From NCBI RefSeq assembly GCF_003334405.1, contig NZ_QOWM01000006.1: DNA of 64,000 nucleotides; one strand, 5' to 3'. The DNA comes from Escherichia coli (GTDB taxonomy: Bacteria > Pseudomonadota > Gammaproteobacteria > Enterobacterales > Enterobacteriaceae). Position 1 is the first letter of the stretch; every line of letters starts with the position of its first letter. Below, in pieces: positions 1,742 through 2,326 of this stretch. The notes under the pieces are model-generated. The model was not told the origin of the DNA, searched no databases, and saw only the letters and a program-made list of their open reading frames with translations. A program made the position numbers and the translations under genes.

Positions 1742-2131
1742 ATGAAAAAGCTGCAAATTGCGGTAGGTATTATTCGCAACGAGAACAATGAAATCTTTAT
1801 AACGCGTCGCGCAGCAGATGCGCACATGGCGAATAAACTGGAGTTTCCCGGCGGTAAAATTGAAATGGGTGAAACGCCGGAACAGGCGGTGGTGCGTGAA
1901 CTTCAGGAAGAAGTCGGGATTACCCCCCAACATTTTTCGCTATTTGAAAAACTGGAATATGAATTCCCGGACAGGCATATAACACTGTGGTTTTGGCTGG
2001 TCGAACGCTGGGAAGGGGAGCCGTGGGGTAAAGAAGGGCAACCCGGTGAGTGGATGTCGCTGGTCGGTCTTAATGCCGATGATTTTCCGCCAGCCAATGA
2101 ACCGGTAATTGCGAAGCTTAAACGTCTGTAG
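1742..2131 (+). CDS. mutT: 8-oxo-dGTP diphosphatase (Nudix)
   Basis: 129-aa ORF with Nudix box GGKIEMGETPEQAVVRELQEEVG; sequence recognised as MutT. Confidence 0.95.
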   Translation: MKKLQIAVGIIRNENNEIFITRRAADAHMANKLEFPGGKIEMGETPEQAVVRELQEEVGITPQHFSLFEKLEYEFPDRHITLWFWLVERWEGEPWGKEGQPGEWMSLVGLNADDFPPANEPVIAKLKRL

Positions 2132-2209
2132 GTCAGATAAGGCGTTTTCGCCGCATCCGACATTCGCACACGATGCCTGATGCGACGCTGGCGCGTCTTA
2201 TCAGGCCTA
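2128..2209. repeat. REP/BIME element (two inverted REP units)
   Basis: Units gtaggtcagataaggcgttttcgccgcatccgacat and gatgcctgatgcgacgctggcgcgtcttatcaggcctaa match the E. coli REP family; first unit overlaps the mutT stop codon. Confidence 0.8.
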
Positions 2210-2243
2210 AAGGGATTTCTAACTCATTGATAAATTTGTTTTT

Positions 2244-2326
2244 GTAGGTCGGATAAGGCGTTCACGCCGCATCCGACATTTGCACAAGATGCCTGATGCG
2301 ACGCTGTCCGCGTCTTATCAGGCCTA
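2244..2326. repeat. REP/BIME element (second copy, two inverted REP units)
   Basis: Near-duplicate of the element at 2128-2209 (gtaggtcggataaggcgttcacgccgcatccgacat ... gcctgatgcgacgctgtccgcgtcttatcaggcctac). Confidence 0.8.

Follow-up and report, generated by a model that had tools for sequence, protein, structure and literature searches.

Between the convergent genes mutT and yacG of Escherichia coli, in a gap of 215 bp, lies an array of repetitive extragenic palindromic (REP) sequences, which we describe here in a 64,000-nucleotide stretch of the E. coli chromosome (contig NZ_QOWM01000006.1 of assembly GCF_003334405.1; hereafter, the window). Four REP units occupy positions 2128–2327 in the order y, z2, y, z2, and together form two tandem y-linker-z2 units. 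We consider it very probable (roughly 0.85) that the array is a bacterial interspersed mosaic element (BIME) of the BIME-2 type, composed of two y-linker-z2 pairs of the standard E. coli REP family, with putative roles at the level of both DNA and RNA. Such elements are long known, having been catalogued in E. coli K-12 since the 1980s–1990s, and a preliminary description made from the sequence of the window had already proposed that tandem REP-pair elements fill the mutT–yacG spacer. The repeat finder, BLAST and Rfam all bear this proposal out; of the span it gave, 2128–2326, the start holds, while the true end is 2327.

Architecture and identity of the mutT–yacG array

The repeat finder shows the two y-linker-z2 units as direct repeats, 92–100% identical and with a period of 116/117 nt. 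The first y REP (2128–2162, + strand), evident from the sequence, the repeat finder and BLAST, opens with GTAG at 2128–2131, which contains the mutT stop codon, and its stem runs from 2132. This unit is degenerate: an A at 2135 creates an A-C mismatch, the loop is TTTT, and the fold amounts to −13.1 kcal/mol. Linker TTCGCACACGA (2163–2173) separates the tail of this y unit from that of the first z2 REP, and REP325 units carry a linker of 11–12 nt at the equivalent position. The first z2 REP (2174–2210, − strand) is inverted, has TTAG in place of GTAG (CTAA on the + strand), agrees with the consensus at 36/36 positions (E = 4e-16) and folds at −21.4 kcal/mol. There follows an inter-unit spacer of 33 bp (2211–2243), which the sequence and the genome search place only in alleles with at least two units. 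The second y REP (2244–2278, + strand; E = 2e-11, hairpin −18.8 kcal/mol) is joined by linker TTTGCACAAGA (2279–2289) to the second z2 REP (2290–2327, − strand; BLAST E = 4e-10, hairpin −21.3 kcal/mol), which is again inverted and contains the IS621 target ATCAGGCCTAC at 2317–2327. GTAG at the foot of the stem is intact in both y units and in this second z2. Apart from the 4 nt in which it overlaps the mutT stop, the array is extragenic.

The last REP ends 19 nt from the yacG stop. Within the intervening tail (2328–2346) is GCATCAGACA, a sequence complementary to the z2 5′ arm and perhaps what is left of another REP arm. A truncated z2 fused to this tail closes the array of E. whittamii.

A census of the window was taken by blastn-short with three E. 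coli REP consensus sequences (y, 35 nt; z2, 37 nt; and z1), which are consistent with the y, z1 and z2 sequences given by Durrant et al. (2024). Beyond the perfect first z2, identity to consensus reaches 95% for the second z2, 97% for the second y, and 92% over 24 nt for the degenerate first y (E = 3e-4). By BLAST, the 64 kb hold six significant REPs only, namely the four of the array and the two of an element between cueO and gcd, discussed below. Alignment to the REP consensus had been put forward in the preliminary description as the check on its proposal, and the outcome is positive for every unit (E-values from 4e-16 to 3e-4). Both y-linker-z2 units also exceed the gathering score of Rfam family RF02564 (naRNA4, the nucleoid-associated RNA of REP325; 59.5 bits), at 77.8 bits for 2131–2207 and 78.4 bits for 2247–2324, each on the + strand.

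A REP tail motif matches nine times in the 64-kb window, against 0.74 expected. Reading the sequence led us to reject the matches at 8866 and 37915, both inside genes, as chance; that at 8149, which is without a significant consensus match, was also set aside as chance. A rigid 39-nt REP pattern returned zero matches, because loop lengths differ between units. The RefSeq record of MG1655 has no repeat features annotated.

Folding energies of the hairpins in the array lie between −13.1 and −21.4 kcal/mol (z-scores, −2.7 to −4.7). Across 29 homologous units (those of REP325, of sucB–sucC and of the present locus in several Escherichia lineages), 95.7% of stem cells are paired, compared with 26–43% when partners are slid, and one stem position shows a compensatory U-A/C-G change. 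A REP-containing query finds a median of 17 places per genome, and a BIME-1 query at least 39. In the phnE–phnD region of MG1655 we also observed a further REP pair, consisting of a y unit and a y-like inverted unit (GTCGGATGCGACGCCGGGGCGTCTTATCCGACCTAC).

BIME-2 elements are defined by y and z2 units in alternating orientation, a short linker and tandem copies, and the composition of the array fits. REP325 (yjdM–yjdN) and the BIME-2 of sucB–sucC share these traits with it, and the array resembles other BIME-2 elements in standing just after the stop of a gene and in being length-polymorphic between strains. The spacer is where it departs from both relatives: 33 bp with a consensus site for integration host factor (IHF), as against 17 bp in REP325 and 12 bp in sucB–sucC, both without the site. 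This consensus, WATCAANNNNTTR (TATCAATGAGTTA), found by motif scan at 2220–2232 on the − strand with an A-rich 5′ flank, was missed in the preliminary description. It lies 12 nt from the GTAG of the second y, compared with 13 nt in the BIME-1 linker. In consequence the z2-spacer-y junction mimics a BIME-1 (also RIP or RIB; a y unit, an L linker with an IHF site, and z1), in that REP, IHF site and REP succeed one another with the site 12–13 nt from y. Unlike BIME-1, however, the array has z2 instead of z1 and is repeated in tandem, and a hand alignment gives an identity of only about 50% between its spacer and the L linker. Because the spacer is unusual and resembles the BIME-1 linker, an older scheme might file the array as an “atypical” chimeric BIME.

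Where 2.3 IHF consensus matches would be expected in the window there are six, and one of them taken alone is therefore weak evidence. The consensus is retained in the otherwise diverged spacer of GPEC996 and isolate 362 (TATCAACATGTTA) and, outside these, in Escherichia sp. E1V33, Escherichia sp. MOD1-EC7003 and E. whittamii; it has been lost in the L020 lineage. Binding of IHF to the predicted site is plausible.

The textbook member of the BIME-1 class in this window lies between cueO (27741–29330, + strand) and gcd (29532–31940, − strand), where the preliminary description had placed a RIP-type element with an IHF-like site at 29396–29494. Its parts are readily recognized: a z1 REP (29396–29424, − strand) that is 29/29 to the consensus and matches the published z1; an L-type linker of 35 bp (29425–29459) with the IHF consensus AATCAATGGATTG at 29435–29447 (− strand); and a y REP (29460–29494, + strand) that is 34/35 to the consensus, with a hairpin of −18.7 kcal/mol. 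The GTAG/CTAC ends of z1 and y face the long linker, in accordance with the definition of BIME-1 (equivalently, RIP). A separate hairpin, GCCCGGATCTCTCCGGGC at 29353–29370, stays upstream of the element.

Variation between strains and species

The first REP begins inside the mutT stop codon, as the preliminary description had stated and as both the sequence and the end of the open reading frame (ORF) at 2131 confirm: TAG at 2129–2131 is formed by the last three bases of the GTAG at 2128–2131, and the first base of the stem is 2132. Strains differ in how this junction is read. Among 5426 complete E. coli genomes, which serve as our population set throughout, the K-12-like end of mutT (CTG-TAG, giving 129 aa) occurs in two variants, found in 1828 and 1447 genomes and accounting together for about 60%. 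In O157-like (712 genomes) and B2-like (937 genomes) alleles, together at least 30%, GTAG has become GTAT, and reading continues through GTC-GGA to a TAA that belongs to the conserved GGATAAGG of the stem's 5′ arm, for a protein of 132 aa. The 132-aa MutT ends in KRVYVG, and its stop, TAA or TAG, lies inside the REP stem (in O157, B2 and others). In MOD1-EC7003 and E. whittamii, the stop is TAA at the K-12 position. The repeat supplies the mutT stop codon in every case examined; the final bases of mutT are repeat DNA and, as a result, the C-terminus of MutT differs between lineages (129 or 132 aa).

The mutT–yacG locus is found in 5426/5426 genomes, with arrays of differing length: one unit in PK-F-10122, O157 and IHE3034, two in K-12 and GPEC996, and three in 33F4. 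The sole unit of PK-F-10122 is a hybrid of the first y and the second z2, as would be expected of the product of a deletion between the repeats. More generally, the array would grow or shrink through recombination or slippage between the 116-bp direct repeats, with a REP-associated transposase possibly assisting in the change of copy number. The 33-bp spacer is present in 1856 genomes (34%), usually once and three times at most, with a median of one place per genome; since most carrier genomes hold it in a single place, the spacer is specific to the mutT–yacG locus. The inter-unit spacer also occurs in one plasmid record, and the K-12-type end of mutT likewise in one, which suggests an F-prime-like plasmid with chromosomal DNA, or else misassembly.

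According to the literature, all isolates have the BIME-2 elements, in variable lengths, whereas with BIME-1 elements it is presence itself that varies. Both loci considered here match this distinction. The cueO–gcd BIME-1 is present in 2742 of the 5426 genomes, and the polymorphism comprises 124 bp (window approximately 29367–29490). In ATCC 25922, for instance, the 124 bp are cleanly missing, leaving TCTCCGGGCATGAACAA as the empty site, and the two junctions have the microhomology CCGG(G)CAT in common.

Looking further afield, species-representative genomes were scanned with a YacG peptide pattern, which yielded 100 loci. In all loci where both genes were found (96/100), mutT and yacG are convergent. 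In most genera 0–90 bp separate the two genes; Klebsiella pneumoniae, for instance, has 52 bp between them, and Enterobacter and Kosakonia have about 30 bp. Different REPs, of their own, are found in several species of Citrobacter, and in the loci read these start 8–10 nt past the mutT stop; in Salmonella enterica subsp. arizonae and diarizonae, the gap extends to 314–340 bp and no REP was seen in it by eye. Every sampled Escherichia lineage, in contrast to most of these genera, has y-linker-z2 units beginning at the mutT stop, numbering three in L020, five in E1V33, two in MOD1-EC7003 and about 1.5 in E. whittamii. Judging from its presence in all of them, the array appears to predate the split of the sampled Escherichia lineages. 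The record CACSKA010000010.1 is titled Chryseobacterium sp. 18061 and contains an enterobacterial mutT/yacG pair like that of Citrobacter sp. 18056; it is probably a mislabelled or contaminated assembly.

The array is itself a target for a mobile element. The sequence ATCAGGC-CT-AC is a natural target of IS621 (Durrant et al. 2024), and IS621 sits inside the last z2 at exactly this sequence in FORC_041 (locus 2772–4039) and in O26 and O103 strains. The query for the locus finds it split in up to about 320 genomes. An IS621 junction query at 80% coverage finds 977 genomes, a count that is ambiguous because part of it probably reflects other BIME-2 loci.

Possible roles of the array

The preliminary description read the array as an mRNA-stability element or a binding site for gyrase or IHF, which is the assignment that the literature makes for the REP class and which would apply here by analogy. 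We consider an exonuclease barrier, damping of mutT translation, and binding of gyrase and IHF to be the candidate activities. In the published model, REPs are not terminators but barriers to 3′ exonucleases following Rho termination downstream. Applied to this locus, the convergent mutT and yacG transcripts would both run into the array, whose hairpins would not terminate transcription; after Rho termination further downstream, these hairpins (−13 to −21 kcal/mol) would block 3′-to-5′ exonucleases, and mature 3′ ends would thereby be set and protected. That the element forms the 3′ end of the mutT mRNA, as the preliminary description put it, is likewise a prediction. Transcript evidence specific to the locus was found in one published data set only. 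Adams et al. (2021) report a Rho termination region at MG1655 position 111226 on the − strand, antisense to mutT with a score of 5.3, and another at 138442 on the − strand, antisense to cueO; these correspond to window positions 1924 and 29140 (window position = MG1655 position − 109302). Because these regions lie beyond the two BIMEs, minus-strand transcripts cross both elements and Rho terminates them some 200–250 nt further on, an arrangement that, at the array, fits the exonuclease-barrier model.

At the level of translation, the location of the stop codon is the pertinent feature. REPs within 15 nt of a stop codon are reported to cause ribosome stalling and to lower the output of the upstream gene, and about half of catalogued REPs reportedly lie within this distance (Liang et al. 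2015, as summarized elsewhere). With zero bases between stop and stem, mutT falls within that limit. As with the REPs attributed this role by Liang, Rudd and Deutscher (nrdAB, for instance), the REP lies close behind the stop, here directly after it; what differs at mutT is that the stop itself belongs to the REP, as part of GTAG or, where MutT has 132 aa, of the GGATAAGG stem. Because the stem directly follows the stop in K-12 and surrounds it in O157 and B2 alleles, a ribosome terminating on mutT would, under the REP-stop model, have to melt the first stem, and MutT output would be lowered. Damping of mutT translation by the REP may be proposed on these grounds, and ribosome stalling or transfer-messenger RNA tagging at mutT is likewise putative. 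A bolder proposal is that the REP-embedded stop is a selected throttle on MutT, such that lineages differ in MutT level and in the rate of A:T-to-C:G mutation, depending on three variables: the stop used (TAG in GTAG, or TAA in the stem with three further codons), the strength of the first hairpin, and the number of units. We give this proposal very little credence.

Several observations weigh against assigning these roles to the array. In the curated Term-seq table of Adams et al. (2021), whose peaks were called from uniquely aligned reads, there is no 3′ end at the array or at the cueO–gcd BIME. The first y unit of K-12, which is the one at the mutT stop, forms the weakest hairpin (−13.1 kcal/mol). 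The gyrase paper names other BIME-2 loci, sucC–sucB and tldD–yhdP, and neither mutT nor yacG is named in the part of its supplement that was searched. Literature searches found no experiments at this locus on 3′ ends, MutT level, or IHF or gyrase binding. Finally, most other genera are without such an element, so any function for the host is dispensable. Adams et al. (2021) also list no Rho region on the + strand after mutT. We found no paper that mentions mutT, yacG and REP together, and searches of supplements for locus-specific gyrase, IS621, IHF, naRNA or REP-distance data returned nothing.

It is possible, although we lean against it, that the array is nothing more than selfish or neutral repeat DNA in an insertion-tolerant convergent gap, and that whatever effects it has are without selective value. 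Copy number varies freely from one to five, and the units decay, with GTAG giving way to TTAG, GTAT or TTAA and mismatches entering the stems. Most other Enterobacteriaceae manage with the short gap of 0–90 bp, Citrobacter species gained different REPs independently at the same place, and the cueO–gcd BIME-1 is missing in about half of strains. Neutrality sits less easily with the persistence of the array, invariably right at the mutT stop, in all Escherichia lineages sampled, or with survival of the IHF consensus in spacers otherwise diverged to about half identity. Stems that are 96% paired also argue for constraint, though gene conversion alone could explain them.

We are more doubtful that the array is foremost a DNA-level site, with gyrase on the y units and IHF on the spacer topologically insulating the convergent units from one another. 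Published work shows BIME-2 elements to be enriched for gyrase cleavage, which falls mostly on y units and does not depend on transcription, and the array has the composition of this class. The full IHF consensus at 2220–2232 (− strand), with its A-rich flank and BIME-1-like distance of 12 nt from y, is consistent with such a site, as is its conservation in diverged alleles and in 3/4 of the other Escherichia lineages sampled. Yet one-unit alleles, which make up about two thirds of genomes, have no spacer and hence no IHF site, the L020 lineage has lost the consensus, a single IHF match counts for little where 2.3 are expected in the window, and literature searches turned up no binding data for the locus. 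At the DNA level, gyrase on the y units and IHF on the spacer would be plausible extras to the RNA-level roles outlined above. A gyrase-binding class of repeat happens to neighbor yacG, a gene for a DNA gyrase inhibitor; we put this adjacency down to coincidence, since yacG is retained in other genera that have no such array.

Each unit might alternatively be a gene for a noncoding, nucleoid-associated RNA like naRNA4 that acts with HU, an idea we find improbable. Both units pass the RF02564 gathering score on the + strand (78 bits vs 59.5), and their 77-nt y-linker-z2 layout, with its two hairpins, is that of REP325. RF02564 in effect models a BIME-2 unit, however, so a match indicates homology of the repeat and not function. 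The linkers and the spacer differ in sequence from those of REP325. No promoter-like site was found in the array, and literature searches gave no evidence of a discrete RNA from the locus, nor any data on its expression or on HU binding.

That the hairpins constitute a bidirectional intrinsic (Rho-independent) terminator of mutT and yacG is quite unlikely, even with four stable GC-rich hairpins between convergent genes. None of the hairpins is followed by a U-run (T-run in the DNA) on either strand, a scan of 2128–2327 finds neither a terminator-like nor a promoter-like site, and minus-strand transcription continues past the array as far as the Rho region.

Two ORFs of 67 and 81 codons start inside the second unit on the + strand, one (2280–2483) from a TTG in the linker and the other (2296–2541) from an ATG within the GATGCG found in every z2. 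The preliminary description called them spurious, and we judge likewise; the chance that they are real small genes is negligible, in that the frames are open but begin in repeat DNA, run fully antisense to the well-supported yacG, match no NCBIfam family, have start regions that are absent, interrupted or different in one-unit, IS621-carrying and non-Escherichia loci, and correspond to no gene in RefSeq, whose locus tags skip b0100.

Gene neighbourhood and implications

The window is E. coli K-12: over a 611-nt query around the array, BW25113 and other derivatives of K-12 show 100% identity. First among the local genes is secA, represented by its 3′ end (6–1682, + strand; ORF list and RefSeq) and followed by mutT (1742–2131, + strand; 129 aa), which is supported by the ORF list, by the NCBIfam MutT equivalog at 245 bits, and by RefSeq as b0099. 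On the opposite strand are yacG (2347–2544; ORF list, RefSeq and an NCBIfam equivalog) and zapD (2554–3297; ORF list and RefSeq). Upstream of mutT, a hairpin at 1700–1728 (+ strand; −17.4 kcal/mol, z = −5.3) followed by a T-run ends 14 nt before the mutT start at 1742, and was missed by a simple terminator scan. Given its position, expression of mutT must use either read-through or a promoter of its own. Rfam STnc40 (RF02057, 84 bits) matches 1658–1727 (+ strand), taking in the secA 3′ end and the strong hairpin. Elsewhere in the window, the small RNA tp2 (RF02030, 103 bits) has a full-length match at 13599–13712 (− strand).

As a discovery, the array carries little weight, for the locus behaves as the literature predicts. 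What we add is modest: a spacer of the IHF type, an association with the mutT stop that holds across the genus, two positions for that stop, and natural insertions of IS621. For annotation, shadow ORFs that start in REPs should not be called genes, and it is useful to recognize the array as a natural landing site for IS621. Beyond annotation, the mutT locus represents a handy natural test bed for the idea that REPs lower translation, since existing alleles already offer two positions of the stop and several copy numbers.

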